DNA of 64,000 nucleotides from Candidatus Omnitrophota bacterium. GTDB taxonomy: Bacteria; Omnitrophota; Gorgyraeia; B26-G9. Position numbers and translations under genes: made by a program. Of the stretch, positions 5,527 to 46,910 are shown in pieces (the first letter of the stretch is position 1; every line of letters starts with the position of its first letter). Below the pieces are notes generated by a model that did no database searches, was not told the origin of the DNA, and saw only the letters and a list, made by a program, of their open reading frames with translations. The DNA lies in contig JAZDHZ010000003.1 in assembly GCA_043805415.1 (NCBI GenBank), positions 28,366 through 92,365 on the forward strand, read 5' to 3'.

Positions 5527-5586
5527 AATGGGAACTCAAGGTGTGGAGATACTAATAGATTTTATCTAACAATAGCAGGAGGCGTA

Positions 5587-6066
5587 ATGGCTAGGACATT
5601 AATTTTAATTGTGTACTGTTTTATTTTAGCTGGGTGTGCAACAGGGCAAAGAAGCGCAAATCCAGATATACAGAATATGCAGAGCCGCATAGCTTTTCTG
5701 GAAGATGAAGTTAATGCGAAAGATCAGGAAATCGGAAGCATGCGAAATGAATTAAGACAAGTTAAGCAAAAATATGTGATGAAATCTGATAATTCTGAAA
5801 TATCAGGCAAGAGGGTGAGTAATAAAGCGGTATCTAAAACCAAGGCAAACAATGCTCAGCTGGAAGAAATTATCCGAGTTGACGGAGTGACGGCAGACAA
5901 AGTCCAACTGGCGTTAAAAAAAGCAGGTGTTTATGAGGGGAAGGTTGATGGGAAAATCGGGCCTAAAACAAAAGAAGCGATTAAAGCATTCCAACGCAAG
6001 AATAATCTAAAAGTTGATGGCGTTGTCGGACGAGGTACTTGGGCAAAATTAAAGAAAAATCTTTAA
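5587..6066 (+). CDS. Lipoprotein with C-terminal peptidoglycan-binding (PG_binding_1-like) domain
   Basis: Lipobox LAGC near the N-terminus. Coiled-coil middle. C-terminal VQLALKKAGVYEGKVDGKIGPKTKEAIKAFQRKNNLKVDGVVGRGTW resembles the PGRP/PG_binding_1 repeat. Confidence 0.5.
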   Translation: MARTLILIVYCFILAGCATGQRSANPDIQNMQSRIAFLEDEVNAKDQEIGSMRNELRQVKQKYVMKSDNSEISGKRVSNKAVSKTKANNAQLEEIIRVDGVTADKVQLALKKAGVYEGKVDGKIGPKTKEAIKAFQRKNNLKVDGVVGRGTWAKLKKNL

Positions 6067-6120
6067 AAAGAAAAAGCAATAGCGATTTTCATGATTAGGA
6101 TTGTCAGATAATTTATTCAA

Positions 6121-6168
6121 AAATAACCCTATGCGATTATTTTAACAATCGGATAGGGTTATTTCTTT
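6121..6168 (+). terminator. Hairpin (11-bp perfect stem AATAACCCTAT/ATAGGGTTATT, 19-nt loop) followed by a T-rich tract
   Basis: Read directly from the sequence downstream of the lipoprotein gene. Confidence 0.45.
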
Positions 6169-6251
6169 AAATAAGGGAAGGGTAAACATAGTTTAAAAAT
6201 GGTTTGGAATAACTTGCCTAAAACTCCCTCACGATATACAATAGATAAACT

Positions 6252-7415
6252 ATGAAAAACACCTTCTATATTAAAACTTTCGGCTGTCAGATGAACACAC
6301 GCGATTCCGAACTGGTTGCCGGTTTATTGCTTAAAAAAGGCTATAAGCTTATTGAGCAGGAAGATGCTGCTGATATTGTTCTTGTGAATACCTGTAGTGT
6401 CAGAAAACACGCGGAAAACAGAGTCTGGTCGGAAATCGGAAAACTGAAAAAACGCAAAAAGCGCACAGGTAAGCCGCTTATCGGGCTTATCGGCTGCATG
6501 GCGCAAGCCTGGGGGCAGGAAGTATTTGCTAAAGCGCCTTTGGTGGACTTAGTTGTTGGGCCGAACAATATAAGCGCGATTCCCGGATTGCTGGCGGATT
6601 TGAAATCAGGTTTTGGCCAAGCGATTGCTGTGGGCAAAGATCAAAGAGATGCTTTTGTGTATAATACTGAATATATCAGCGGAAAATCGCATTGTAATGT
6701 TAATATCATGGAAGGGTGTAATAATTTTTGTTCATACTGTATTGTTCCCTATGTAAGAGGCAGGGAGAGAAGCCGGGACGCGGAAGATATTATGAATGAG
6801 ATCAAATCATTGGTAAGCAAAGGGATAAAAGAGATTACGCTGCTCGGGCAGAACGTCAACTCTTACAAGTCACAAGACACAAGTCACAAGACACAAGGAA
6901 AAGATAAAAGCGTTTCTTTTATTGACTTGCTGGACCAGGTAAATGCCGTTGAGGGATTGGAGAAGTTTGATTTTGTGACGTCGCATCCCAAGGATGCTTC
7001 GATAGAGTTGTTTCAGTCTATGGCGGCATTGGAAAAGTGTCGGAAATTTTTACATTTGCCGATACAGTCAGGCTCTGATAGAATATTAAAGAAAATGAAT
7101 CGGGGTTATACAGTAGCGCATTATGGACAGCTGGCTAAGGCGGCAAAAGAACTTATTCCTGAATTAAGGCTAGGTACAGATATTATGGTTGGGTTTCCCA
7201 CGGAAAGCGAAAAGGATTTTGAGGATACCTACAAGCTTATGCAGGAAATTCAATTTGACGCTGCTTATATTTTTAAGTATTCGCCTAGGCCGCACACAAA
7301 AGCGGCGGAACTTAAAGATGATATAAGCGAAGAGGTTAAGAAATCTAGGCATAAGATTTTGCTTGATTATCAAAGACAATTACACAAGAAAAAAGATCAA
7401 CGGAATAATTTATGA
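6252..7415 (+). CDS. miaB: Radical-SAM methylthiotransferase of the MiaB family, ending before any TRAM domain, with a repeat-derived in-frame insertion
   Basis: N-terminal FYIKTFGCQMNTRDSE (MTTase domain). CNNFCSYCIVPYVRGRERSR (CxxxCxxC radical-SAM). The C-terminus ends right after the radical-SAM domain at 387 aa, whereas E. coli MiaB is ~474 aa. A tRNA prenyltransferase (miaA) lies two genes downstream. Confidence 0.7.
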   Translation: MKNTFYIKTFGCQMNTRDSELVAGLLLKKGYKLIEQEDAADIVLVNTCSVRKHAENRVWSEIGKLKKRKKRTGKPLIGLIGCMAQAWGQEVFAKAPLVDLVVGPNNISAIPGLLADLKSGFGQAIAVGKDQRDAFVYNTEYISGKSHCNVNIMEGCNNFCSYCIVPYVRGRERSRDAEDIMNEIKSLVSKGIKEITLLGQNVNSYKSQDTSHKTQGKDKSVSFIDLLDQVNAVEGLEKFDFVTSHPKDASIELFQSMAALEKCRKFLHLPIQSGSDRILKKMNRGYTVAHYGQLAKAAKELIPELRLGTDIMVGFPTESEKDFEDTYKLMQEIQFDAAYIFKYSPRPHTKAAELKDDISEEVKKSRHKILLDYQRQLHKKKDQRNNL

Positions 7416-8170
7416 AAAAAACACTGAGCTTAATTGTTGTGCTTATTTGTCTGGGGATTTGTTCCAGAGCATATTCCTATGGGGCGGCACTGGATGAAGC
7501 CGTAAAATTAATGCTTAAAAATGATTATTACGCGGCTTTAGATGAATGCCATCGGTTGGAGCGGATTCTTTCCGGTTATGACAAATCAGAGCTTTTATAT
7601 ATTGAAGGAGAGTGCTTTTCCCTGCTTGAAGATTATGACCAGGCGCGTGAGGTTTTTAAACAGGGGCTTAAAAATTCTAAAGGAGAGCTTTCAACCAAAA
7701 TATATCTAGGCATAGCGGATAGCTATTTTATGCAGCATGGATATGATAAAGCGATAAGTATTTATAAACAGCTGCTTGAGAAAAACAACCCTGATTACGA
7801 AGCGGGATTATTGTTTAAATTAGGAAAAGCTTATCAAAAAAATAGTAAATGGACCCAATCAAAGTATTATTTTGATATGCTCAAGCAAAAATACCCGCAG
7901 AGTTTTGAGCTGGCAATTGTTGAAAAATCTTCAGTTGGCGGAAATTTCTTTACCATCCAAGTCGGCTGTTTTTCAAATAAAGAAAACGCGGAAAAGCTGC
8001 GAGATAATTTATTGGCAAAAGATTATGATGTTTATGTTACCCCTTTTCAGTCTAATGGCAGTGAATTGTACAGAGTAAGAGTCGGTGAATTTGTTTCTCT
8101 TCTTGCTGCGGAGCATCAAGAACTTGAGTTAAAAAATGTTGAACATTTACCAACCCATATATTCCCTTAA
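7412..8170 (+). CDS. Lipoprotein with TPR-like repeats and C-terminal SPOR (septal peptidoglycan-binding) domain
   Basis: Signal and Cys lipobox (LGICS). TPR-like helical repeats. The C-terminal FFTIQVGCFSNKENAEKLRDNLLAKDYDVYVTPF...YRVRVGEF matches the SPOR fold signature. Confidence 0.5.
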   Translation: MKKTLSLIVVLICLGICSRAYSYGAALDEAVKLMLKNDYYAALDECHRLERILSGYDKSELLYIEGECFSLLEDYDQAREVFKQGLKNSKGELSTKIYLGIADSYFMQHGYDKAISIYKQLLEKNNPDYEAGLLFKLGKAYQKNSKWTQSKYYFDMLKQKYPQSFELAIVEKSSVGGNFFTIQVGCFSNKENAEKLRDNLLAKDYDVYVTPFQSNGSELYRVRVGEFVSLLAAEHQELELKNVEHLPTHIFP

Positions 8171-8252
8171 AACAGCGTTTAGCCCTTTGACTTCGCTCAG
8201 GATAAACGTTTAGAGATTAGCGTTCAGGAAAAAATAAAGAAATGAGTTTAAA

Positions 8253-9185
8253 ATGGAAAACAATAAAAAGCCTTTTGTCCTATTTTTAGTTGGGCCCACA
8301 GCTTGTGGGAAAACAGCAACTGCTATTGAGATTGCAAAAAAAATCAATGCGGAAATTATCTCGGCAGATTCAATGCAGGTTTATAAAGGCATGGATATTT
8401 TAAGCGCAAAACCAACCCTTACTGAGCAAAAAGAAATACCGCATCATTTGATTGATATATTAGAGCCAAGTGAGGAATACAGTGTAGCGATTTTTCGCCA
8501 AAAAGCACTCAATTGTATAGAACAGATAATAAGCCGCGAAAAAATACCTTTAATTGTCGGCGGTACAGGCATGTATGTAAAAGTTTTGACCAAAGGACTT
8601 TTTTCAGATAATGGTAAGGATGAGCAGGTGCGCAAAGAGTTGACCCAAGAAGCCAAACACAAGGGCAATGAATATCTTTATGAGCGGTTAAAACAAGTTG
8701 ATCCGAAAGCCGCGGATAAAATTCATCAGAATGATATGCGTCGGGTTATTCGGGCGCTTGAAGTTTATGAGTTGAGTAACCGGACAATCACGGAGCTAAA
8801 AACAGAGATCCAAGGACTGGGTGAAAAATATAATTTTAAAATATTTGGCATTGACAGAGATCGCCGAGAGCTTTATCAGCGGATTGATCAAAGAGTTGAG
8901 CAAATGTTTGAAGCCGGGTTTTTAGATGAAGTTAAAACATTGCTAAGCAATGAATTAAGTCATACGGCCAGACAGGCATTGGGCATAAAACAAATCAGAG
9001 AATATCTAGATGATAAATGTACTTTGGATTTTGCCCGGGAAATAATCAAGCGTGATAGCCGGCGTTTTGCCAAGCGTCAGCTTACTTGGTTTAGACAGGA
9101 AAAAGACATAATCTGGATCCAGGCGAATAATGAAACAACCCCTCAAGAAACAGCAGAAAAAATCATTCCTTTATTAACCATTTAA
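8253..9185 (+). CDS. miaA: tRNA dimethylallyltransferase
   Basis: FLVGPTACGKTATAIEIAKKINAEIISADSMQVYKGMDI is the canonical MiaA P-loop and N-terminus. Size is 310 aa. Confidence 0.85.
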   Translation: MENNKKPFVLFLVGPTACGKTATAIEIAKKINAEIISADSMQVYKGMDILSAKPTLTEQKEIPHHLIDILEPSEEYSVAIFRQKALNCIEQIISREKIPLIVGGTGMYVKVLTKGLFSDNGKDEQVRKELTQEAKHKGNEYLYERLKQVDPKAADKIHQNDMRRVIRALEVYELSNRTITELKTEIQGLGEKYNFKIFGIDRDRRELYQRIDQRVEQMFEAGFLDEVKTLLSNELSHTARQALGIKQIREYLDDKCTLDFAREIIKRDSRRFAKRQLTWFRQEKDIIWIQANNETTPQETAEKIIPLLTI

Positions 9186-9246
9186 TTAATAATTTATAAA
9201 CAAGGCTTATCAATAGGGATAAATCTTGTATATCGTTATTTTTCAA

Positions 9247-9257
9247 TGTGTTATAAT
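9247..9257 (+). promoter_or_regulatory. Extended -10 element (TGtTATAAT) upstream of the 1074-aa gene
   Basis: tgt+tataat at 9249-9257 with no good -35 hexamer. Confidence 0.3.
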
Positions 9258-9445
9258 TTCAAAAAACTGCCTCGTATTTTTGCAAAAAGCCATTTTCTAT
9301 GGTATACTTTTACGTTTTTGTAATTCCCTAAACAGCTGCAAGCTTTTTAAGCGTAACATTATTAAAAATCAATAGGTTGTAGGATTACTAAAGTGCGGGA
9401 TTAAGCATGTTTGTAATTCAGTTTAAGCCGATAAGGAATCTTTAA

Positions 9446-12400
9446 ATGAATAAGTTGTTATTTAAAACAACAATCTTTGTCTTAATTCAATTGCTTGTCC
9501 TTGGCAACATTGTCATAAAAACAGATAGTTTGTGCTTAGCCGCGGATAGGTTTTTCTTGGCAGAAGAACATAATCTATCTCCCCGGATAAATATAGATAA
9601 TGTCATATTAAATAATATGTTTATCAATGGCTTTCCAGTATTAGAGCCAGCTAATTATCAGCAAGATTATATTGCTCAAGATAGTAATTTAATGAATCGA
9701 ATAACCAACTATGCTCTAAGGAAAAAAAAGGAGAATGAAGGTAAGGGGATTTTCCGTCAAAATCCTGTTTATCTTATGCTTAAAAGCAGAATAGATAGAA
9801 TTGAAAAACGCGGCACACCGTATAATGTTAAAGCTAAACAAAGAAAAGAGTTGCTTAAAGATGTTAACAGATTAAAAAAGCTTTTTGGCGAGCGAATAAA
9901 GTGGATTAAACCTGGTTTAGCAAAAGAATATGATACGCAGATTAATGAGCTTGAGCGATTATTAGATGCAGTGCAAACTCAAGGAGATTGGGATGATTTA
10001 GTGGCTTTAGGAATTAAATTAAATAAGGCCTTATTAAAGCATGGACGTTTAGCTAAGGAACTGGCAGTATTTAGCGGGACTAGAAAAAAGAAAAAACTAC
10101 CAAACAGCGTTGAAAAAAAAGAAAAACCTAAAAAGCCGATAACTACCGCGATACAAAACCAGTCTGAACCAGCAAAAGAAATTCAGGAAGAATCATTGCC
10201 TGATCCAGAGCAGCTAAAGGATGAATTAGCCGCAGCTGAGTTAGAGATTCCTGAACCAGATGTTTTGAAAAAATACTTAGAGCTAAATGCCGGGCAATTA
10301 CCAAAATTTATTTTGGCTACTGGTTCACGCCGAAAGCATGTTTTAGAAAAAGCATTTGAAAAATTAAATGAAGTATATAATTTGGCTTATCAAGATTTGC
10401 CTTATGAGATAGCTTTTGCTTTCCAGGAAAAGATTGACCAATTAAAACAGCGAATAGATGCTGTACAAAAAGGAGAGTTCCCGGCGCTTAAACAAGATCT
10501 TAGAGCCTTGGAAACTGACCTTGTCCAGGCGATAGCAGACAATAATCAAGCAAAAGCAGCTGCCGCGTTGCGGCAAATAGAAAATATCGGGATCGCTAAT
10601 CCGCAGAATCAAGATAATCAGACTCCTCACGTTCCAAAGGTAAAAAAACCAACTGAACAGGTAGATTCCTTTGCTCAAGCAGTAACTTTATACGATCCGG
10701 ATAAAGTTAAACTGCGTTCACTTAAGGACGTGATTAATGAGTTGCAGGGGCAAATTAATTTACTTGATCAAATAATCAACGCCGAAATGCTCAACAGTAT
10801 GGAGCTGCCGGTCTATAATGCAAGAAGGGAAGCGGATGGACTGGTTATACAGATAAATTTCTCAGAGGCTTTGGAAAAAATCGAGGTTGGTAGTGACATA
10901 ATAATGGATCTTAGAGGAAAAATCTATTTGTTTAAATGCGATAAGCTGCTTAACTCCGGCGGTAATTTACTTTTAAAACCAGCAAATAAAAAAGGAGTGT
11001 TTCCGGATAATTTTCCTCAGGATATAAGCGGAGGAAAATTTGTTTATATGCCAAGCACTCATTCTGAAGATATGCAGAAAAAAACATTAGAAGCAATTAC
11101 GAATAAAATAGGCGGACAGAATCAAAGCACTGGGATAAAAGTCTTAGATTATTTTCTCAGAATTAAATCCGCGGCAAGGGATATCGAGGAGATCGATGAG
11201 TTAAAAGAAGCGATTGCTTATACCGATGGCTTGGACATGTTTCAAAAAGCAGCGGTAAATATGATTGTAAAAACTAAGTTTGGTTTGATTTTAGGCCCCT
11301 TCGGAACCGGCAAGACAAGTGTCTTACTTGCCGGAGCAAAGAATATTATTTTTAAAAATAAAAAACCGGTTTTCATTATTGCTCCTCAGCATAAGATCGC
11401 GGATGATATTACTTTAAAAGCAGGAGATTGCCAAATCCCGGTGCTGCGTTGCGGTAATAATCTGAGCAAATTTAATCCAGCAGTGCTGAACAAATACAGC
11501 CGTCACTCAGAAACAGGGCAAATAGAGTTTATGCGCAGGTATAAACAGCTAAATACAAGCAACGAAGATAATGGCTGTTTATTTGTGGGAACTGATATGG
11601 GCGCAAGCTTTGACTGGTTGATTAATCAATTGCGCGATCCGGAATCAGCCGCATTTTTAAAAGATGTTACTTTGATTGTTGATGAGGCTGCGCTGATTAA
11701 TTATCCGGAATTAATTACCGCTATTTATATGCTGCGGCCTGATGCTTTGATCTTAGTTGGCGATCATGTCCAGTTTTCGCCTTACAAATTAGCGGCAAGA
11801 TTCTCGAGTCGGATAATGAGTTCATTCCGGAGAAATATTTCGAAAAAAGCTATTTACCGGTATCATATCAGTTCATTTAAAGAACTGATTTCAATGCGGT
11901 TTAATAAAGTAAACCTGTTAATTAATTATCGAAATCCATGGATAAACGTTGATTTGCTTCAGGAATGGTATAAAGGTGTGCTTAATTTGCAGAGTATCAG
12001 CAAACAAAGAGGAGAGCTTATAGAAGAAGATACTTTTGTTATTGAAGATACTTCAACCTGGGAAAAGCAATCATTCGCGGAGAAGTATCATTATGGTAAT
12101 AGTTTTTGTAATAAAACAGAAGCGCTCTGGATTTTAAAAAGAATCAAATATTTTTTAGCTAAAGGCAATATCGCGGATGATATCACAATTATAACTTATT
12201 ATAATGGACAAATCCGGTTAATAAGCGATTTGATTGATGCTGATGGAGATATTTCAAAAGCGGATAGTCTAATATTAAAGCGGAATATTTTTACTCCCAT
12301 AAGTTTTCAGGGAGGAGAAAATAAGATTTTATTAGCTTCGCTGGTTAGAAGTGAAGCTGATACCACTGGTATGGGAGCATCCAGCACTAAAAAATCAAAT

Positions 12401-37608: not shown

Positions 37609-38463
37609 ATGCAGGTTATAAACAGCGTGACTGAAATGCGAAAAGTAGCGAACAAATTAAAGAAACAATCCCAAATCCTTGGTTTTGTACCGACAATGGG
37701 GTATTTACATAAAGGACATTTGTCCTTGTTGGCAAGATCAGTTAAAGATTGTGATATAAGTGTAGTCAGTATTTATGTAAATCCAATCCAATTCGGGCCA
37801 AAAGAAGATTTAAAAAAATATCCTAGAGATATAAAAAGAGATATTAAATTGTGTAAAGAGCAAGGTGCTGACTATGTTTTTATTCCAACAGATGAGCAGC
37901 TCTATCCAAAAGGCTATATGACTTATGTTGAGGTTAAAGGGCTTAGTGATGGACTTTGTGGTAAATCCCGTCCTGGGCATTTTAAGGGGGTAACAACCAT
38001 AGTAAACAAGTTGTTTAATATAGTGAGTCCAGATATCGCCTACTTTGGACAAAAAGACGCGCAACAGGCATTGGTGATTAAAAAAATGGTAAAAGATTTG
38101 CATATGTCTTTAAAAATAAAGATCTTACCAATAATTAGAGAATCAGATGGGCTTGCGATGAGTTCACGTAATGTGTATCTTGCGCCAAAACAGTGCAAAG
38201 ATGCGGTTTTACTATATCAAGCATTAAAAAAAGCAAGGCAATTGATCATCCAGAAACAGCGGGATTCAGAAAAAATAATTTCTCAAATGAAAAGATTGCT
38301 TTCTCAGTCGGAGTTTGCTACAATAGACTACATTGCTATCGTCGATGCTGATAATTTAGAAAAGATAAAACAGCTAAAAGCAAAAACAAAAGTATTAATC
38401 GCGATCGCAGTATATATCGGGCAGGTAAGATTAATTGATAATATTATAGTTAAAGTTGATTGA
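37609..38463 (+). CDS. panC: Pantoate--beta-alanine ligase
   Basis: [20 protein letters not shown]-type motif. Confidence 0.85.
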
Positions 38464-38477
38464 AAGGAAAGAAGTTA

Positions 38478-38867
38478 ATGTTGCGAATAATGAGTAAGTC
38501 AAAGATACATCGGGCGACAGTAACCGATGCTAATCTGCAATATATAGGCAGTATTACTATTGATAAGAATCTTTTAAAAGAAGCGGACATCTATCCCAGC
38601 GAAAGAGTTCAGGTGGTCAATGTGAATAATGGCTCAAGAGTCGAGACCTATGTTATAGAGGGTAAAGCGGGCAGCGGGATTATTTGTATGAATGGGCCGG
38701 CAGCAAGGTGGGCGCAAGTTGGAGATATTGTTATCATAATATCTTATTGTCTGCTTTCTAACGAAGAAGCAGCTGTGCATAAACAGAAAACGGTTTTTGT
38801 GGATGAAAAAAATAGACTGATAAAGAGAGAACTAAAGGCAAAAGAAAATGCAAAAAAGCGAAGATAA
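38478..38867 (+). CDS. panD: Aspartate 1-decarboxylase (pyruvoyl-dependent)
   Basis: [17 protein letters not shown]-terminus and the GSITID self-cleavage site. Confidence 0.8.
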
Positions 38868-39789
38868 AAAATATTTAGAAGCTTTAAGTGCCAAGATTCT
38901 TCAACTTAAAAAAAGCAGAAAAGCAATAATTATCGCGCATAATTATGAACGGCCGGAAGTGCAGAAGATTGCTGATATTGTTGGAGATTCTCTTGAATTG
39001 AGCCGCGCGGTCACCAGCGTTGAAGCCAAGATAGTTGTTTTTTGCGGAGTTCATTTTATGGCCGAGACAGCGTCTATTCTTAACCCGGAGAAAACAATCC
39101 TCTTGCCGGTAAAAGAAGCCGGCTGCCCCATGGCGGATATGATTACGACAAAAGAGCTTAAAGCGCTTAAGATTAAAAACCCCGGAGTTCCGGTTGTTTG
39201 TTATGTTAATTCATCTGCTGAGGTAAAAGCAGAAAGTGATGTGTGCTGTACCTCAAGCAATGCTCTGGAAATTGTTGCTTCACTTAAAAGTAAGCAAGTT
39301 ATCTTTGTCCCAGATAAGAACCTGGGCAGCTATATTCAAAGAAATCTTACCGAAAAAGAGATCATCCTTTGGGAAGGGTTTTGCCCCACGCATATGCGCA
39401 TAAAAGAAGAAGAGATTCTTCAGTCAAAAAAAGAACATCCAAAGGCTAAGTTTATGGCTCATCCTGAATGTCCGCAAAAGCTGCTGCAGCATGCTGCTTA
39501 TATCGGCTCGACCGCCGGGATGCTTAAATTTGTCAAGCAGGATAAGAATAAAGAGTTTATTGTGGGCACTGAGTTAGGAATGATCTACCGACTTGAACAG
39601 GAAAATCCGACAAAGAAGTTTTATTGCCCGAGCGCGCATTTTATTTGCGCGGATATGAAATTAACAACCTTGGGTTGGGTCGCGCATAGTTTGGAAGATA
39701 TGGTTTTTGAAGTAAAAGTAAGTCCGGAAATTAGACGGAAAGCAAAAAAAAGTTTGGATAAAATGATAAATTTTGTTCCAAAAAAGTAA
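38848..39789 (+). CDS. nadA: Quinolinate synthase
   Basis: [12 protein letters not shown] plus three conserved Cys contexts. Length 313 aa. Confidence 0.75.
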
Positions 39790-39858
39790 AGATATAACTT
39801 AGCTTAAACGATAGAGTTTAACTTTTTAATGCAATATTTTAAAGAAAATGAGTTTAAA

Positions 39859-40665
39859 ATGATTAAAGTTGGTGTTTGCGGCTGTGGAACAATCGGGTCG
39901 TATCTAATAAAGACAATGCTTAAAAGCTATAATAAGCAGATAAGCTTAGTGGGTGTAACGGAAATAAATCAAGATAATTTAATCCGGCTGAGCAGTTCTT
40001 TAAAAAAAAAGATAAGCAGCTTTTCATTAGAAGATTTGGTTAAAAAGAGCGACTTAATTATTGAGGCTGCGCAGGGAACTGTTGTGCCGGAACTTATTGG
40101 GTATGTGATAAAGTATAAAAAGCAGATTATGCTCATGAGTGTCGGCGGTCTGCTGATAAAAAAAGGATTATTAAAAAAAATCCAGGACAACAACATTAAA
40201 TTATATATCCCGAGTGGAGCGATTGCTGGTCTTGACGCGCTTAAAGCTGCAAGAATGGGTAAGATAAAGTCTGTTAAGCTTACAACCAGAAAACCTGTTG
40301 AAGGGCTTGTCGGTGCTCCTTACTTGATAAACAATAAAATCGACTTAAAATCCATTAAAAAAGATACGGTTGTATTCCAAGGCTCAGCGCTGCAAGCTGT
40401 GGCAAATTTTCCTAAAAATATAAATGTAGCGGCGATTTTAAGCATAGCTGGTATCGGCGCGACAAAAACAAGTGTTTGTATAGTTGCTAGTCCAAAAACA
40501 AAAAGAAATACACATACTATTGAAATTAAGGGAGATTTTGGTACAATATTAACTTGTACAGAGAATGTTCCTTCAAAGCTTAATCCTAAAACTAGCATGA
40601 TGGCAATACTATCCGCATGGGCTACGCTTGATGGTATTTTGAATAATGTAAAAATCGGAACGTAA
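39859..40665 (+). CDS. nadX: L-aspartate dehydrogenase
   Basis: MIKVGVCGCGTIG, IPSGAIAGLDAL, FPKNINVAAI and NPKTSMMAILS align with Thermotoga NadX motifs (FPSGAIGGLD, FPRNINVA, ENPKTSM). Confidence 0.75.
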   Translation: MIKVGVCGCGTIGSYLIKTMLKSYNKQISLVGVTEINQDNLIRLSSSLKKKISSFSLEDLVKKSDLIIEAAQGTVVPELIGYVIKYKKQIMLMSVGGLLIKKGLLKKIQDNNIKLYIPSGAIAGLDALKAARMGKIKSVKLTTRKPVEGLVGAPYLINNKIDLKSIKKDTVVFQGSALQAVANFPKNINVAAILSIAGIGATKTSVCIVASPKTKRNTHTIEIKGDFGTILTCTENVPSKLNPKTSMMAILSAWATLDGILNNVKIGT

Positions 40666-40708
40666 ATTCCGAAGAAATGATACAAGATCATCTTTTCCTT
40701 TTTAGTGT

Positions 40709-40936
40709 TTGTGTTTGACGATAGGAGTAAAGGAGATAATTGTGGATTGCAAAAATTTCTCAAAGAATATGAAGATTTGCAATTGTAGTTACAATCCTTG
40801 TTCACGCAAAGGCATGTGTTGCGAATGTCTGCACTATCATCGTCAAATGGGGCAATTGCCCGCGTGTTTTTTTAAAGAAGACGACGAGCGAACATACGAC
40901 CGTTCTATAGAGAGATTCATTCGATCAAGACAATGA
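40709..40936 (+). CDS. Small Cys-rich hypothetical protein (CxC..C..CCxC motif; alternative start 40769)
   Basis: [24 protein letters not shown]: seven Cys in 20 residues. No homolog recognised. Confidence 0.35.
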
Positions 40937-40979
40937 TGAAGGTCGTGTATAAATTTAAAGCGAGGAGGGAGGTGAAATT

Positions 40980-41213
40980 ATGGCAGATAAGGTAGCAAAA
41001 GCTGGTATCGTAAGAGAAAAAGGATATCTCTACTATCTAGACAAACAGGGTGATGTTTCACGTGCAAAAATGGCTAGAGGTGGGAAAAAAGGCGGAAAGC
41101 CTGGCAAAGTTACTAAATTAGGAATAACGAGAGAGGAAGGTTTTCTCTATTTTATTGATAAAGAGGGAGACGTTTCTCGCGCTAAAATGGCAAGACGCAA
41201 AAAGAAAAAATAA
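40980..41213 (+). CDS. Small basic protein made of two ~33-aa tandem repeats (GIxREKGYLYYLDKQGDVSRAKMAR)
   Basis: Internal duplication visible by eye. Good SD (GGAGGGAGG) upstream. Confidence 0.45.
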   Translation: MADKVAKAGIVREKGYLYYLDKQGDVSRAKMARGGKKGGKPGKVTKLGITREEGFLYFIDKEGDVSRAKMARRKKKK

Positions 41214-41401
41214 TAAAGTGTATATGCTATAAATACTTATTGGCCCCTGTGAAGGTGACTTTACGGGGGCTCAATAGTCATTATAAATAAATAATAAAAA
41301 CGGATAAAATAAAGTATCTTAGCCGGTAGACTAGGATAAAGCTCTACTGATAATAATAGATAGCTTAAAATGATTACAATTTAGAAAAAAGAACATGCTT
41401 T

Positions 41402-41725
41402 ATGAAAGGAGCAATAACAATGGAAGAAGAAAAAAAACAAGAAGAAGTAAAAGCTGAGGAAATACAGGAAAATGAGCAAGAATCTACCTCTGAGGTAAAA
41501 GAAGAATCTAAGCAAGCACAACCTAAAGATAAAAAGCCGCCAAAGGTAGAAATTCCTAAAAGCTGCGGATCTTGCAAGAAGCCGGTAGCGAAAACGCGTT
41601 ATTATCGCAATATGCAGTTTTTCTGCAATACAAAATGCTGGAAAGATTTTAAGAAAAAAGAAGCGCAGATTAAGCTTAAGGCAGCAGAAGAAAAAAAACA
41701 GCAAGAACAAGCACCTGCTGCTTAA
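41402..41725 (+). CDS. K/E-rich protein with C-terminal TRASH/L24e-like zinc ribbon (CGSC-x16-FCNTKCW)
   Basis: The CxxC...FCxxKCxxxF spacing resembles TRASH/ribosomal L24e zinc ribbons. The N-terminal half is low-complexity and acidic/basic. Confidence 0.4.
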   Translation: MKGAITMEEEKKQEEVKAEEIQENEQESTSEVKEESKQAQPKDKKPPKVEIPKSCGSCKKPVAKTRYYRNMQFFCNTKCWKDFKKKEAQIKLKAAEEKKQQEQAPAA

Positions 41726-41748
41726 ATATAGAACTGAATTATTAGTTT

Positions 41749-42810
41749 ATGATTAATCTTGCTATTTTAGTATTGCTTTTAGTTTTATGTGTTTTTGTGG
41801 TAGTGATTAGTTTTAAAAACCAGAAAAAAACACAGCCTGATGCTTTAGGGCTCATGCAGCAACAGCTTGAGAGTTTGCGTGGACAGGTAAATGAGTCAAT
41901 GCGGGATATGACTGGCAATATCGATCAAAAATTGCAGGCAATAACTCAGCAGTTATTTGTTTCTCAGCAAAGTGTCGGTGAGCGTCTTGATTCCGCGTCA
42001 CAGGTTTTTGGACAAGTGCAAAAAGATTTAGGTTTGCTTTCCGCAGCTACAGAACGTGTTTTTGAAGTGGGTAAAGATATTGCCAGCCTGCAAGAAATAT
42101 TAAAAGCTCCTAAAATAAGAGGTGGTTTAGGTGAATTATTTTTAGGGGATCTTTTAAGTCAGGTCTTGCCGGCATCGTGTGTAAAACAACAGTATAAGTT
42201 TAAAAACGGTGATATTGTTGATGCAGTTTTAACTCTTGGCCAAGGCATGGTTAGTATTGATTCTAAGTTTCCGCTGGAGAATTTTAAACGTTTGATAAAT
42301 GGTACAAATGAAGAGGAAAAACGTCTGGCACGCAAAACTTTTATCAATGATGTTAAAAAACATGTTGATAGTATAGCGAGTAAATATATTCTTCCAGATG
42401 AAGGAACTTTTGATTTTGCTTTAATGTATATTCCGGCAGAAAATGTTTATTATGAACTTATTATCAAAGATACTGATGATGATAAGAATTCTCTAAGTAC
42501 TTATGCTTTAAATAAAAAAGTTATTCCAGTCAGCCCCAATTCTTTTTATGCTTATTTGCAATCAATTCTCCTCGGGCTAAAGGGCTTAAGAGTTGAAAAA
42601 AACGCACAGCAGATCATGCAATATCTCGAACGCTTAAGAGGTGATCTGGGGCGGTTTAAGCAGGATTTTGAGGTCTTGGGTCGGCATATAGTGAATCTGA
42701 AAAATAAGTATGATGAGGCGGATAAAAGGATTAATACCTTTGAAGGTAAATTATTAATGGTTTGTCAGGTTGACCAGGAAAGTAATATATTAGACAATGC
42801 TGCAGAATAA
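41749..42810 (+). CDS. rmuC: DNA recombination protein RmuC family
   Basis: N-terminal TM, coiled coil, and IRGGLGELFLGDLLSQVLPAS...GDIVDAVLTLGQGMVSIDSKFPLENF matching the RmuC RGxWGExxL...PDxxxxLPxGxxxxIDAK core. Confidence 0.7.
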   Translation: MINLAILVLLLVLCVFVVVISFKNQKKTQPDALGLMQQQLESLRGQVNESMRDMTGNIDQKLQAITQQLFVSQQSVGERLDSASQVFGQVQKDLGLLSAATERVFEVGKDIASLQEILKAPKIRGGLGELFLGDLLSQVLPASCVKQQYKFKNGDIVDAVLTLGQGMVSIDSKFPLENFKRLINGTNEEEKRLARKTFINDVKKHVDSIASKYILPDEGTFDFALMYIPAENVYYELIIKDTDDDKNSLSTYALNKKVIPVSPNSFYAYLQSILLGLKGLRVEKNAQQIMQYLERLRGDLGRFKQDFEVLGRHIVNLKNKYDEADKRINTFEGKLLMVCQVDQESNILDNAAE

Positions 42811-43354
42811 CGATAAAAAAGCTGATAATCGAAAACATCCGAGGTTTATTCTTGTTCTTCCTTTACAAATTAGTACGGAAGATTTTACGCTTAATACAAC
42901 CTCGAAGAATATTAGCTGTGCCGGAGTTTTTTGTTATATTGATAGGTTTATTCCGATTAATACAAGTGTAAATGTCAGTATGAAACTGTATTATCTTGTT
43001 GATGGTCAAAAAGTGCAAAGAACAGTTAAATGCAACGCGAAAGTAGTGAGAATTGATTCGTCAGAAAACAGGGAGAGTGGGACTTGTCGGGTGGGTATTG
43101 CTTTTGATCAAATCGCAGGGGAAGACCGCGAAATACTTATAAAATATATACAAAAAAAGAATCTAAAAGAAGCTAAAGAATTAAAGAAATTATATTTAAG
43201 ATTAAAGGAAATGGCAGCACGACTTGTAGAGGTAGAAGAATGCCATCCTACGGCTGAACATTTCCGTAAGGTTATTAATACGGCGATCATTGAGCTTGAC
43301 GCGGCAGCACATATTTTAGATTACGAAATTAATGAGCTTAAAACTTTGGAATGA
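42797..43354 (+). CDS. PilZ-domain protein (paralog 1 of 3) with conserved C-terminal HPTAEHF helix
   Basis: RKHPR (RxxxR) followed ~24 aa later by NISCAG (D/NxSxxG), which is the c-di-GMP-binding PilZ signature. Confidence 0.6.
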   Translation: MLQNNDKKADNRKHPRFILVLPLQISTEDFTLNTTSKNISCAGVFCYIDRFIPINTSVNVSMKLYYLVDGQKVQRTVKCNAKVVRIDSSENRESGTCRVGIAFDQIAGEDREILIKYIQKKNLKEAKELKKLYLRLKEMAARLVEVEECHPTAEHFRKVINTAIIELDAAAHILDYEINELKTLE

Positions 43355-43910
43355 TATGAAAAAAGATTGCATTATTAAAAATAAAAGAATATATAATCGG
43401 TTTAAAGTAAATTTTCCCTTTGAAGTTATGGGCGATAACTTTTGTTTTAAAACAGAAATGAAAGATATTAGCTGTAGCGGGTTATTCTGTAGGAGCGAGC
43501 ATTATATAGCGCCTAAGACAAGATTAAAAGTGGTTTTAAATATTCCTCTTTGTAGGAATCAAAAAATAGAGAAAAAAATGTTTACCAGTTGGGGAAACGT
43601 AGTGCGGATTGATCCCCAAATGCAGAGTGCGGGAGCGGATTATAATCTGGGCATTGCCTTTAGCGGAATTTCTGAGACAGAAAAAGATCTTATTTTGAGC
43701 TTTATCCGGCAAAGGAATGTTAAAGAAGCGGAAGAGTTGCGGGATATGTATTATGAGCTTAAAAGAACAATTTCTGAGCTTGAAACATTAGAAGAATCGC
43801 ATCCGACCGCGGAGCATTTTTGTAAGGTTATTACTCAAGCAATTATGGAGCTTGATGGAGTGGCAAATAGTTTAGATCAGGAAATAACTGAAATTAAAAA
43901 AGCAAGTTAA
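43332..43910 (+). CDS. PilZ-domain protein (paralog 2 of 3) with conserved C-terminal HPTAEHF helix
   Basis: RIYNR followed by DISCSG. The C-terminal EESHPTAEHFCKVITQAIMELD is nearly identical in pattern to paralog 1. Confidence 0.6.
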   Translation: MSLKLWNDMKKDCIIKNKRIYNRFKVNFPFEVMGDNFCFKTEMKDISCSGLFCRSEHYIAPKTRLKVVLNIPLCRNQKIEKKMFTSWGNVVRIDPQMQSAGADYNLGIAFSGISETEKDLILSFIRQRNVKEAEELRDMYYELKRTISELETLEESHPTAEHFCKVITQAIMELDGVANSLDQEITEIKKAS

Positions 43911-43922
43911 AAAAGGTGAATA

Positions 43923-44306
43923 ATGTCTAGAGAAAATAGTCATTCGGAAAGAAGAACGGATAAGCGTTTTGATGTTCAATTGCCAATTAAAATTGGCGGA
44001 TCTGATTTTGAGATTGCTACTGATACAAAGAATATAAGTTCAACGGGAATTTATTGTCAAGTCGATCGGTTTCTACCCGTCATGACTAGGCTGTGCTTAA
44101 AAATGTCAATACCTTTAATCGAAAATAATCGAAAAGTAGAAAAAAATATTGATTGTAAAGCCGTGGTTGTAAGAATCAGGCCAGAATCTAGGCTGGAACA
44201 TATAAATAGTTATCAGCTTGGTCTTTTCTTTACAGATATTAAAAGTCAAGACAGAGAATTAATCAGTCGATATCTGCAGCATGCTTTTTTTGCTGGTAAC
44301 AATTAA
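43923..44306 (+). CDS. PilZ-domain protein (paralog 3 of 3, short)
   Basis: RRTDKR followed by NISSTG. Lacks the C-terminal extension of paralogs 1 and 2. Confidence 0.55.
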   Translation: MSRENSHSERRTDKRFDVQLPIKIGGSDFEIATDTKNISSTGIYCQVDRFLPVMTRLCLKMSIPLIENNRKVEKNIDCKAVVVRIRPESRLEHINSYQLGLFFTDIKSQDRELISRYLQHAFFAGNN

Positions 44307-44436
44307 AAACAGCATATAGCGATTAGCGGTTAGGAAAAGCAGAAGACAGAGAACAGAAAATGGAAAAAGCAAAAAAAGACTTGGTTGATAGTCAATGGTT
44401 TGGCAAAAATTCTCTAAAAAAATAGGGAGAAGAATT

Positions 44437-44913
44437 ATGGCAAATGCACTGATCGCTTATTATTCCCGTACTGGAAATACAAAAAAAATGGCTGAGATTA
44501 TCAGTGAAATTTTTAAAAAAGAGGGGCTAATAGTTGATATTAAAAGTGTTGAAGATACGGAAGCTGATGAATTAATAAATTATGATGTTTTAGTTTTTGG
44601 TTCTCCGACTTATTATGGTTCAATGGCTTATCAGCTTAAGCAATTAATCGATGCAAGCGTTAAGCTGCATGGCAAGCTGCAAGGTAAAATAGGGGCAGCT
44701 TTCTCTAGTGCCGGGAATGTAGCCGGCGGTAATGAAACAACAATTTTAGGAATTATCAATTCTTTTTTAATTCACGGGATGATTGTGCAAGGGGATTCAC
44801 GCGGTGATCATTATGGGCCGGTATCATTGGGGGCTCCTGATGCGCGGGCGATAAAAGAATGTCAGCGATTTGCTAAGAGGATTGCTGGTTTAGCTAAAAA
44901 GCTCTTTGATTAA
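44437..44913 (+). CDS. Flavodoxin-like fold FMN-dependent protein (WrbA/flavodoxin family)
   Basis: ALIAYYSRTGNTKKMAE and VLVFGSPTYYGS are flavodoxin phosphate-loop and FMN-binding signatures. Confidence 0.6.
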   Translation: MANALIAYYSRTGNTKKMAEIISEIFKKEGLIVDIKSVEDTEADELINYDVLVFGSPTYYGSMAYQLKQLIDASVKLHGKLQGKIGAAFSSAGNVAGGNETTILGIINSFLIHGMIVQGDSRGDHYGPVSLGAPDARAIKECQRFAKRIAGLAKKLFD

Positions 44914-45031
44914 TTAAATTGAGAAAACAGAAAACCGATGACAGAAAACAGAAAAAATAGTTAGATTATTTCTGAAAGTTTTAATCCTTAGCCTGTTGTC
45001 TGTGTTCTGACTTCTGTATTCTGGTTTTAGC

Positions 45032-45107
45032 GCGCCTGTGGCTCAACGGATAGAGCATTTGGCTTCGGACCAAAGGGTTGGAGGTTCGAGTCCTCCCAGG
45101 CGCACCA
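45032..45107 (+). tRNA. tRNA-Arg (anticodon TCG), CCA encoded
   Basis: Manually folded cloverleaf: acceptor GCGCCTG/CAGGCGC, D stem GCTC/GAGC, anticodon stem TTTGG/CCAAA with loop CTTCGGA, T arm GGAGG-TTCGAGT-CCTCC, then ACCA. Confidence 0.6.
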
Positions 45108-45127
45108 AAATAAGCGAAATTGAGCTA

Positions 45128-45156
45128 TTGACCTGCGGTATATTTTTTGTTATAAT
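45128..45156 (+). promoter_or_regulatory. Sigma70 promoter (TTGACC-17-TATAAT) upstream of tRNA-Lys/Leu/Gly
   Basis: Hexamers at 45128-45133 and 45151-45156. Confidence 0.5.
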
Positions 45157-45183
45157 TTATTTTCTTAGGTAAATATATATTTC

Positions 45184-45259
45184 GGGCCGTTAGCTCAGCT
45201 GGTAGAGCAGGACACTCTTAATGTCAAGGTCGAAGGTTCGAGCCCTTCACGGCCCACCA
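45184..45259 (+). tRNA. tRNA-Lys (anticodon CTT), CCA encoded
   Basis: GGGCCGT acceptor, anticodon loop CTCTTAA, T arm GAAGG-TTCGAGC-CCTTC, ACGGCCC-A-CCA. Confidence 0.7.
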
Positions 45260-45365
45260 ATATTTTGTTTTTAAGATAAAAAGTTAAGGTGATTCAAGAA
45301 TTAATGAATTCAGTGCGGATTTATCCAGAATAGTCTTATGTGTATGTGAACATTGAAAAGTATTT

Positions 45366-45449
45366 GCGGACGTGGCGGAATTGGCATACGCGTACGGCTT
45401 AGGACCGTATCCTTCTGGGATGAGAGTTCAAGTCTCTCCGTCCGCACCA
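45366..45449 (+). tRNA. tRNA-Leu (anticodon TAG), long variable arm, CCA encoded
   Basis: GCGGACG acceptor, anticodon loop CTTAGGA, 14-nt variable arm, T arm GAGAG-TTCAAGT-CTCTC. Confidence 0.7.
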
Positions 45450-45468
45450 TAAAAGTTAAGATTTAAAA

Positions 45469-45543
45469 GCGGTGGTAATTCAGTGGTAGAATGTCTCCTT
45501 GCCAAGGAGAATGTCGTGGGTTCGAGCCCCATCCACCGCTCCA
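45469..45543 (+). tRNA. tRNA-Gly (anticodon GCC), CCA encoded
   Basis: GCGGTGG acceptor, anticodon stem TCTCC/GGAGA with loop TTGCCAA, T loop TTCGAGC, CCACCGC-T-CCA. Confidence 0.7.
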
Positions 45544-45632
45544 TTCTTTACCTCGGATTGTTGGGTGACTTTCTGAAATGGGCATATTTATTATTGCCTG
45601 CCGATGTGAAATGTTAAAAGGAGATAGTAAGA

Positions 45633-46910
45633 GTGAAAATTAAGATTAAAAATTCGCAAACGTGTCAAAAAACTTTAGAGATTGAAGTTCCCAAAGAAAC
45701 TGTAAACGAAGAATTCGAACGTTACTATAAATCAATAAGTAGCGCCGCGCAAGTGCCCGGGTTTAGAAAAGGTAAGGCACCCAGAGCTTTGCTTGAAGAA
45801 CATTTTGCTGATAAGGCAAGTGATAAAGTTCTTACTAATTTACTTAATGATACATATCACAAAGCAATTGAAAAAGAGAACATTAAGCCGGTTAGTATGC
45901 CAGAAATCTCAGAGGTTAAGTTTAAAAAAGACGAGAATCTGACGTATCAAGCAAAAATTGATATTCAGCCGAGCTTTACGCTAAAAGAATATAAGAATAT
46001 CCCAGTAAAAAAGCAAACAGAAGAAGTTAAAGACGAAGATGTGGTTAAAGTGCTTGAATATCTCAGTGAACGGTATGCTCAATATTTACCGATTGAAGAT
46101 CGCCAAGTAAAAATTGGTGACTATATAATTTGTGATTATAGTTATCGTGTTGGAGATAAAGAGCTTGATAAAAAAGAACATGCTTGGCTTTGGATAAGCA
46201 AGGAAATGTTCATCCCCGATCTTTCAAAAAAAATTGAGGGAGCCCGGATTAATGAAGAAAAAACTTTTGAAATAAGTCTGCCGAAAAAATTCAAACCAGA
46301 AGAATTTGCCGGGAAACAAGCTGATTTTAAATTATTAGTTAAAGAAATTAAAGAAAAGAAACTTCCGGAGCTTAATGATGAGTTTGCCGTAATGTTGAAA
46401 GCGGAATCAATTGATAAATTAAAAGCTCAAATAAAAGAAGATCTTGTTCAAGAGAAAAAAATGCTGTCAAAACAGGATTTAAAGGCACAGATAATTAATC
46501 ATTTAGAGAAAATCATGCCAATTGATGTGCCTCCGACTTTAGTGGAAAAAAGGGAAAAACTTCTGCGGGATACTGCTGCTCAGAGAATGAAACAACAAGG
46601 ATTGAATGATGATCAGATTGAAAAAGAGCAGAAGAAAATGGGAGATATGTTTTCTAAAGAAGCAATGAAACAGGTTAGAGTATTTTTTGTCCTAGAAAAT
46701 ATTGCTTTGGCCGAAAAAATTAAAGTTGAGCAAAAAGAGTTCGACGATCGTATCGGCGAAATCGCGGCTTCTTATAATCAGAAAAAAGAAGAAGTTATGA
46801 AATACTTAACAGAGAAAAATCTCTTGGAAAATATCCATTGGGAAGTTTGGGAAGAAAAAATAATCGCGTATCTTTTGGATAATGCTAAAGTATCAGAAGC
46901 CTCAAAATAA
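45633..46910 (+). CDS. tig: Trigger factor (GTG start)
   Basis: N-terminal ribosome-binding signature GFRKGKAP. Length 425 aa. Followed by clpP. Confidence 0.85.
   Translation: MKIKIKNSQTCQKTLEIEVPKETVNEEFERYYKSISSAAQVPGFRKGKAPRALLEEHFADKASDKVLTNLLNDTYHKAIEKENIKPVSMPEISEVKFKKDENLTYQAKIDIQPSFTLKEYKNIPVKKQTEEVKDEDVVKVLEYLSERYAQYLPIEDRQVKIGDYIICDYSYRVGDKELDKKEHAWLWISKEMFIPDLSKKIEGARINEEKTFEISLPKKFKPEEFAGKQADFKLLVKEIKEKKLPELNDEFAVMLKAESIDKLKAQIKEDLVQEKKMLSKQDLKAQIINHLEKIMPIDVPPTLVEKREKLLRDTAAQRMKQQGLNDDQIEKEQKKMGDMFSKEAMKQVRVFFVLENIALAEKIKVEQKEFDDRIGEIAASYNQKKEEVMKYLTEKNLLENIHWEVWEEKIIAYLLDNAKVSEASK

Follow-up and report, generated by a model that had tools for sequence, protein, structure and literature searches.

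Seven forward-strand open reading frames (ORFs), located at positions 40709-44306 of a 64-kb stretch of Candidatus Omnitrophota DNA (the window), were found to be real and conserved genes that make up a core-chromosome stretch specific to one clade, in which the nuclease-family gene rmuC lies directly upstream of three genes encoding PilZ-domain receptors of cyclic di-GMP (c-di-GMP). The adjacency of rmuC and PilZ genes is real, is kept within one Omnitrophota clade and is undescribed, whilst the idea that the seven genes work together is without any support. The best overall explanation, which we regard as reasonably probable, is that the stretch comprises two transcription units, and that a housekeeping rmuC is incidentally co-transcribed with the genes of canonical c-di-GMP receptors. 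All seven ORFs, together with the RmuC and PilZ assignments, had been placed at these coordinates by an earlier reading made from the DNA alone (the sequence-only reading), and were recovered there, the DUF6485, RmuC and three PilZ proteins with Pfam scores above the family cut-offs (Table 1).

The window is a core-chromosome stretch of a Candidatus Omnitrophota metagenome-assembled genome (MAG), and its RmuC is 100% identical to protein P0001 of such a MAG. Nearly all genes across the 64 kb are co-directional and of housekeeping type (arg, dap, pan, nad, tig, clpP, serA-like), the GC content is even (34-44%), and the seven-gene region, bounded by nadX upstream and by a flavodoxin-like gene and four tRNA genes downstream, belongs to the core chromosome and is no island.

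We propose a tightly packed, co-directional core stretch of one Omnitrophota clade, most likely divided into two transcription units. The first would comprise (nadX)-DUF6485-77-amino acid (aa) repeat protein and would end at a strong hairpin, and the second would comprise zinc finger-rmuC-pilZ(long)-(pilZ(long) duplicate)-pilZ(short). The rmuC gene would encode an ordinary housekeeping membrane-anchored PD-(D/E)xK nuclease, and the PilZ genes would be those of canonical c-di-GMP receptors and were presumably inserted just after rmuC, ahead of the flavodoxin gene, in the ancestor of the clade, with the long form duplicating later in part of it. The three PilZ proteins are predicted to bind c-di-GMP via their RxxxR and [D/N]hSxxG motifs and may act as small adaptors, whilst the C-terminal helical hairpin of the long forms, with its HPTAEHF turn, may dimerise or dock onto a partner conserved across the family. 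Co-transcription of the PilZ genes with rmuC is predicted and likely; a dedicated regulatory link between the PilZ proteins and RmuC is possible but unsupported. Directly observed are the gene content, the family membership, the PilZ fold and the integrity of the binding motifs.

Conservation of the gene arrangement

Eighty rmuC loci were taken from species-representative genomes, the neighbourhoods of RmuC relatives were then collected at graded levels of identity, and a metagenome scan added further loci (L093, L094, L096, L097, L099 and L100). The full gene order was nadX-DUF6485-rep77-(M20 peptidase)-zn-rmuC-pilZ(long)-(pilZ(long))-pilZ(short)-flavodoxin, where rep77 and zn denote the genes for the 77-aa repeat protein and a zinc-finger protein. 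This arrangement was present in L001, L002, L081, L083, L084 and L085, at RmuC identities to the window of 83%, 67%, 68%, 66%, 62% and 62%, respectively. A position of rmuC directly upstream of a long pilZ was found in 13 distinct loci (the window, L001/L092, L097, L093, L002, L081, L083, L084, L085, L094, L096, L099 and L100), reaching down to about 55-60% RmuC identity, and in each of the six loci with calls for both genes (62-100% RmuC identity) the end of rmuC overlapped the start of pilZ by 4-23 nucleotides (nt). The adjacency thus recurs in related genomes, and the three PilZ domains score 44.6, 37.9 and 42.7 bits relative to a threshold of 22.5; these were the two points on which the sequence-only reading had staked itself.

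The number of PilZ genes varied within the clade. Three were present in the window, L001, L097, L002, L081 and L088, and two (one long, one short) in L083, L084, L085, L096 and L099. Orthologues of the short PilZ occurred in every clade locus with downstream sequence, and those of the second long PilZ (PilZ2) in part of the clade (L001, L097, L002, L081, L088 and L093). Since loci with two PilZ genes carry one long PilZ that resembles the first long PilZ of the window (PilZ1; 58-60% identity) more than PilZ2 (43-44%), PilZ2 represents a duplicate confined to part of the clade, and the tandem of three described by the sequence-only reading, whilst correct for the window, is a derived state.

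Beyond these loci the gene order changed. The arrangement was gone in L086 (RmuC identity 61%), and two further Omnitrophota loci, L061 and L063 (RmuC identity 46%), presented the order rmuC-transmembrane protein-DUF167-like-YfiH-like-flavodoxin, with no PilZ and with the flavodoxin gene about 1.3-1.6 kb downstream of rmuC. The flavodoxin gene marks the region that ancestrally followed rmuC in Omnitrophota, and the gene orders of L086, L061 and L063 suggest that, in one lineage, insertion of the PilZ genes separated this region from rmuC.

Separately, it was observed in L086 (7085-13071, reverse strand) that rmuC adjoins a giant gene whose 6,486-aa product has Metallophos and APH matches. Giant genes are reportedly tied to predatory bacteria in a bioRxiv preprint (10.1101/2023.11.21.568195) that is said to mention Omnitrophota many times. 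In L061, a run of Ns (masked sequence or a gap) at 7599-7927 breaks an ORF upstream of a macro-domain/Nudix-like gene.

The PilZ proteins

The motifs RxxxR and [D/N]hSxxG were present in all three paralogues, as the sequence-only reading had noted, and in all orthologues of the rmuC-linked group (group A, defined below), with residues R12, R16 and G43 invariant. The HPTAEHF motif was likewise confirmed in two proteins, PilZ1 and PilZ2, which are paralogues sharing 37% identity. Overlapping starts and stops had been cited as a sign of co-translation throughout the array. The overlap of rmuC and pilZ1 (14 nt) is real and conserved, but that of pilZ1 and pilZ2 is doubtful, as it requires initiation at ATG 43332, and the alignment with homologues begins at residue 9 and favours ATG 43356, 1 nt past the pilZ1 stop.

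An AlphaFold2 model of PilZ1 (predicted local distance difference test, pLDDT, 79) comprised a barrel (residues 17-105) followed by two antiparallel helices (108-147 and 151-183) with HPTAEHF at the turn between them. Foldseek superposed the model on c-di-GMP-bound PilZ structures (5vx6, MotI/DgrA, E = 3.5e-8; 4xrn, 4rt0, 8u0i, 5xly and 5y6g), those of Alg44, PA0012, MapZ and YcgR among them. The six-stranded barrel, the N-terminal motifs and the small size are shared with stand-alone PilZ adaptors (MotI/DgrA 5vx6, MapZ 5xly, PA0012 8u0i and Alg44 4rt0), whereas the long PilZ proteins of the window add a second long helix, which with the canonical C-terminal helix gives a hairpin of roughly 75 residues with an invariant H-P-x-A-x-H-F turn.

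Two long helices beyond a PilZ barrel are also a feature of the tetrameric PilZ (tPilZ) proteins (PF16823; XCC6012 3ph1/3rqa and FlgX), in which they drive oligomerisation and are provided by an insert of roughly 60 aa inside the domain (10.1101/814665). In the window the helices are instead a C-terminal extension, and group A members all keep the c-di-GMP motifs. Membership of tPilZ was rejected; at E<=1 PF07238 was matched and PF16823 was not, and the Foldseek match to the tPilZ barrel was weak (E about 2e-3).

The C-terminal 65-70 residues of the long PilZ proteins were much better conserved in the alignment than the barrel, with the consensus NLKEAKELKKMYL.LKEMAARLVE.EECHPTAEHFRKVI..AI.ELD..AHILD.EINELK and with N122, A126, L129, Y133, L136, K137, L143, H150, A153, H155, F156, D175 and E177 invariant. 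No relative of this module was found in Pfam or the PDB. Matches to RSV nucleoprotein among PDB sequences (E about 3e-4), lying at the barrel-helix junction, were rejected as compositional and were unsupported by the fold search, and matches of the module to NepR anti-sigma factors were not significant (E 0.17-0.66).

A word-indexed search retrieved 58 relatives of the long PilZ proteins, the named ones belonging to Omnitrophota or the PVC group. The family fell into two groups: group A, at >=48% identity to PilZ1 and linked to rmuC, and group B, at 29-39%, in which the second motif is [D/N]hTxxG or degenerate and the C-terminal hairpin is kept. Group B occupies a conserved context of its own, a reverse-strand AAA gene beside DUF6941-PilZL-DUF4416-AP_endonuc_2-hyp119-PilZ131-M23-STAS/PilZ, found without rmuC in at least 10 metagenome loci (for example L087, at 5556-9450, and L089, L110, L112 and L115-L119). 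Because the hairpin and its invariant surface residues are common to both groups, its partner is more likely to be a component shared by these organisms, or a second copy of the protein in a dimer, than RmuC; RmuC specifically is probably not the partner. What is new here is a PilZ subfamily, found mainly in Omnitrophota, with a highly conserved hairpin absent from Pfam and the PDB and with two distinct conserved gene contexts.

RmuC

RmuC is nearly universal, and we know of no regulation of it. Like housekeeping RmuC (Escherichia coli YigN), the protein of the window has a hydrophobic anchor (residues 3-21, as read from the sequence), a coiled-coil region (coiled-coil-type Pfam matches, all sub-threshold) and a PD-(D/E)xK core (E, D, D-x-K), of which E129, D158, D171 and K173 were invariant across 19 homologues. 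It differs from YigN in length (353 vs 475 aa) and in the genes that accompany it in the clade, namely that of the zinc-finger protein before it and those of the PilZ proteins after it. Homologues at 45-60% identity were found in many phyla, and the clade RmuC carried no extra domain relative to relatives without PilZ neighbours. The NCBIfam equivalog model for E. coli-type RmuC (NF007686) scored 48.5 bits where 810 are required, which marks a short, divergent RmuC. No solved structure was detectable by sequence.

A separate observation concerned an ORF of ~70 aa encoding a helical protein (MGQ.I.L.ELHQARRRR.EKVSMEQCVELLEWNLK...RATQIRKLSEILEYALRLL), which is conserved immediately upstream of rmuC in Binatia and deltaproteobacterial MAGs (L011, L012, L013, L017, L018, L020, L021 and L029). 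Such ~70-aa ORFs preceding rmuC in phyla beyond Omnitrophota were considered as analogues of the zinc-finger gene and rejected, the helical protein being unrelated.

The 77-aa repeat protein and the proposed boundary between two units

The 77-aa gene is preceded by a strong Shine-Dalgarno sequence and is the best conserved of the block, its product being 97% identical in L001, where RmuC is 83% identical. The two repeats, thought near-identical by the sequence-only reading, share 24 of 34 residues (71%). An exhaustive search with clustering at 50% returned 875 cluster representatives at E<=1e-3 (235 at <=1e-10), including stand-alone two-repeat proteins and fusions, and the named members came from Omnitrophota, Endomicrobium and Woesearchaeota, hence from bacteria and DPANN archaea. 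Among the larger members, P0179 (886 aa) has many repeats of this type and a transmembrane region, P0223 combines them with zinc ribbons, GAF and Prok-RING, and in P0237 the repeats are fused at the N-terminus to a 370-aa region of unassigned role.

Neither Pfam nor NCBIfam matched the 77-aa protein. Its AlphaFold2 model (pLDDT 90.3) showed six strands in a duplicated three-strand fold, for which Foldseek returned no match in the PDB or in BFVD (viral structures). The repeat profile weakly matched LRP6 YWTD blades and a choline-binding protein, a resemblance in aromatic beta-hairpin motif that Foldseek did not support, and a sub-threshold match to DotY was rejected. We would guess that an abundant nucleic-acid-binding protein is encoded. 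The family, large and unannotated, with no Pfam model and no detectable relative of solved structure, is new in this respect and is, like the PilZ subfamily with the hairpin, a reasonable target for curation and for structural or biochemical work; the organisms concerned are little-studied and possibly host-dependent bacteria.

A GC-rich hairpin follows the 77-aa gene (Table 1) and is markedly more stable than shuffled sequences (z = -6.5). A homologous hairpin (GCCCCTGTGAAG...) was found in L083 and another GC-rich hairpin in L084, and a simple terminator scan did not list the window's hairpin. The element, which has no U-tract, is probably a transcript boundary or terminator-like. The interval from the 77-aa gene to the zinc-finger gene, which holds the hairpin in the window, carries an inserted M20 peptidase gene in L002, L081 and L088. 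It is because of this hairpin and this insertion that the stretch was split into two units: the three tiny proteins of the sequence-only reading do not form one unit, and the first two are set apart from the zinc-finger gene.

The DUF6485 and zinc-finger proteins

The first gene, a maximal ORF of 75 aa, probably starts at GTG 40742 to give 64 aa; this start was preferred because AGGAG lies 6 nt upstream and because the homologues in L002 and L088 begin at the equivalent point with MDC(L/F)NKK. Its cysteine core holds six cysteines in 17 residues and seven in 30, a lower density than the seven in 20 first reported. Wherever a clade locus extended far enough upstream, an orthologue with 54-78% identity was found, those of L081, L084 and L088 also matching PF20095, and no paper mentioning DUF6485 was found.

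In all clade loci the zinc-finger gene immediately precedes rmuC, and L088 has kept it. The protein has a K/E-rich N-terminal part (38% K+E overall) and exactly four cysteines (C55, C58, C75 and C79), and of its 19 homologues the named ones are all hypothetical proteins, from Omnitrophota except for one labelled Victivallales. As judged by these searches it is clade-specific. The earlier label of a lineage-specific cluster does not fit DUF6485, a Pfam family, or the 77-aa protein with its 875 representatives. The CX2C...FxCxxxC arrangement and a basic tail after it resemble treble-clef 'FCS-type' fingers such as VATC, YacG, TRASH and ribosomal L24e, although the zinc-finger protein has an acidic low-complexity N-terminus and reaches no family threshold. 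VATC (PF18716) matches were sub-threshold in three orthologues (E 0.00086-0.03; 16-19.5 bits vs 26.6), no Pfam family scored above threshold, and no TRASH, L24e or YacG profile matched at E<=10; the 16-residue spacing is also unlike that of the TRASH signature. A TRASH/L24e-like zinc ribbon, as first proposed, is therefore plausible at the level of fold class, given the four cysteines in CX2C-X16-CX3C, and fails every family threshold.

Functional significance of the arrangement

The sequence-only reading had treated the seven genes, including the three small proteins, as one cluster, and a single functional system is the most inclusive interpretation of the locus. Although most clade loci contain all seven genes with their order unchanged, the hairpin and the M20 peptidase insertion part the first two from the rest, L090/L091 have nadX-rep-uvrA with no zn, rmuC or PilZ and with no DUF6485 gene called, and no relative of the 77-aa or DUF6485 protein was present in 78 rmuC loci of other lineages; a single system is very unlikely and has been largely refuted. 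At the other extreme, the small size of the ORFs could by itself suggest non-coding noise, but protein identities of 54-97% across loci with RmuC identities of 62-83%, the Pfam match of one ORF, the 875-member family of another and the confident fold prediction for the 77-aa protein refute this and leave it a negligible probability. The check for homologues that had been suggested for the small proteins thus identified conserved genes, with relatives of the DUF6485 and 77-aa families elsewhere. A Shield-like anti-phage module, with RmuC as effector nuclease and the downstream PilZ proteins as accessory sensors or regulators, was also considered and is highly improbable. Shield consists of a membrane-bound RmuC-domain nuclease, ShdA, with ShdB-E always encoded downstream, in a defence-island context (PMC10270631). 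The window shares with it a membrane-bound RmuC-domain protein followed by accessory genes, and its RmuC domain matched the PADLOC model RTasRmuC (2.2e-17). None of the other six proteins, small or PilZ, matched a PADLOC model, however, housekeeping genes (pan, nad, tig, clpP) surround the locus, with even GC content and no defence island, its accessory proteins are unrelated to those of Shield, and its RmuC is orthologous across phyla in the manner of housekeeping RmuC, which the definition of Shield excludes; Shield has moreover been reported in Pseudomonas only, a different phylum (PMC10270631). The locus was accordingly not classed as Shield.

More weight attaches to the claim of the sequence-only reading that the PilZ proteins are directly coupled to RmuC. 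RmuC would then be gated by c-di-GMP, the PilZ adaptors, made in fixed ratio through translational coupling, binding the nuclease or its coiled coil and switching a DNA-cleaving or recombination-limiting activity, with the zinc-finger protein as a DNA-binding accessory. The zn-rmuC-pilZL-pilZS order in 13 loci, the rmuC/pilZ overlap wherever both genes were called, and the purifying selection on the c-di-GMP motifs in all orthologues are in its favour, and there are precedents in ShdB, which negatively regulates ShdA (PMC10270631), and in the PilZ protein CdbS, which acts on chromosome organisation (PMC10313047). We nevertheless consider it unlikely. The panC-panD-(nadA)-nadX...tig-clpP neighbourhood is syntenic throughout the same clade loci, so that the adjacency is no better conserved than its background and is uninformative as to function; about a quarter of the same-strand junctions in the window overlap, panC/panD and panD/nadA among them. 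L088 (GCA_022013175.1) has lost rmuC and keeps the DUF6485, rep, M20, zn and flavodoxin genes and all three PilZ genes intact, with a 32-residue RmuC remnant (residues 132-163, 69% identity) at 2802-3128, where zn is followed by the first PilZ gene. The sister group B, which shares the hairpin, never adjoins rmuC, and when 78 non-clade rmuC loci were searched by phmmer across the flanks retrieved (at most 10 kb), nothing related to the PilZ proteins of the window was detected. In 59 of these loci the genes immediately downstream of rmuC were heterogeneous by Pfam (HisKA/HAMP in 6 and Sua5 in 4, among others), with no PilZ among the 25 families listed, and the clade RmuC itself has gained no domain that relatives lacking PilZ neighbours do not have. 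Direct functional coupling was thus not upheld, being reduced to an adjacency within one clade, inside a syntenic neighbourhood.

We continue to favour two units and incidental co-transcription, against which several points nonetheless weigh. L088 is one MAG contig, and an rmuC could lie elsewhere in that genome. The overlap kept in all six rmuC-bearing loci is also what a functional operon would look like, and unrelated PilZ genes might be expected to drift away from rmuC. Groups A and B could have different partners despite their common hairpin. With respect to two-unit transcription, promoter and terminator consensus scans remained at chance level, and with respect to c-di-GMP signalling, a regular-expression motif scan of the 64-kb window found no GGDEF, EAL or HD-GYP.

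The sequence-only reading had not known the arrangement as described, and the literature searched yielded no paper linking RmuC and PilZ. It is a rather doubtful proposition that translationally coupled adaptors, one with the long hairpin and one short, dock on RmuC and gate DNA cleavage, or, separately, that the HPTAEHF hairpin is a new output domain. Were it true, RmuC would gain its first regulatory handle in a c-di-GMP input, PilZ receptors would have a new class of output, and the gating of RmuC would tie signals of surface or host attachment to the maintenance of the genome or the handling of foreign DNA; the present evidence falls short of this.

Features of the region and neighbouring genes

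The features of the stretch and its downstream context are listed in Table 1. Rfam covariance models applied to 40500-45700 identified the four tRNAs only, and no riboswitch (c-di-GMP or other known RNA element).

Table 1. Location and assignment of features in the seven-gene stretch and downstream of it (window positions).
Feature	Coordinates	Strand	Remarks
Cys-rich DUF6485 protein	40709..40936	+	PF20095, 35.7 bits vs cut-off 24 (Pfam)
77-aa basic protein (isoelectric point 10.3), two 34-residue beta-meander repeats	40980..41213	+	Large unannotated family
GC-rich hairpin	41237..41277	+	3' of 77-aa gene; no U-tract; minimum free energy -27 kcal/mol
K/E-rich putative zinc-finger protein, 107 aa (NCBI annotation: 101 aa)	41402..41725	+	CX2C-X16-CX3C
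rmuC, membrane-anchored PD-(D/E)xK nuclease-family protein, 353 aa	41749..42810	+	PF02646, 172.7 bits vs 26
PilZ-long 1, 185 aa	42797..43354	+	PF07238, 44.6 bits vs 22.5; RKHPR/NISCAG
PilZ-long 2, 184 aa from likely start ATG 43356	43332..43910	+	PF07238, 37.9 bits; RIYNR/DISCSG
PilZ-short, stand-alone domain, 127 aa	43923..44306	+	PF07238, 42.7 bits; RTDKR/NISSTG
Flavodoxin/WrbA-like gene	44395..44913	+	Pfam and NCBIfam flavodoxin matches; context only
Four tRNA genes, Arg-TCG, Lys-CTT, Leu-TAG, Gly-GCC	45032..45543	+	ARAGORN and Rfam; context only

Upstream of the stretch, at 38460-40665, panD (aspartate decarboxylase), nadA and nadX (aspartate dehydrogenase) are tightly packed with overlapping junctions, and this aspartate-related grouping is kept across the clade, with nadA uncalled in some loci (L081, L083 and L085).

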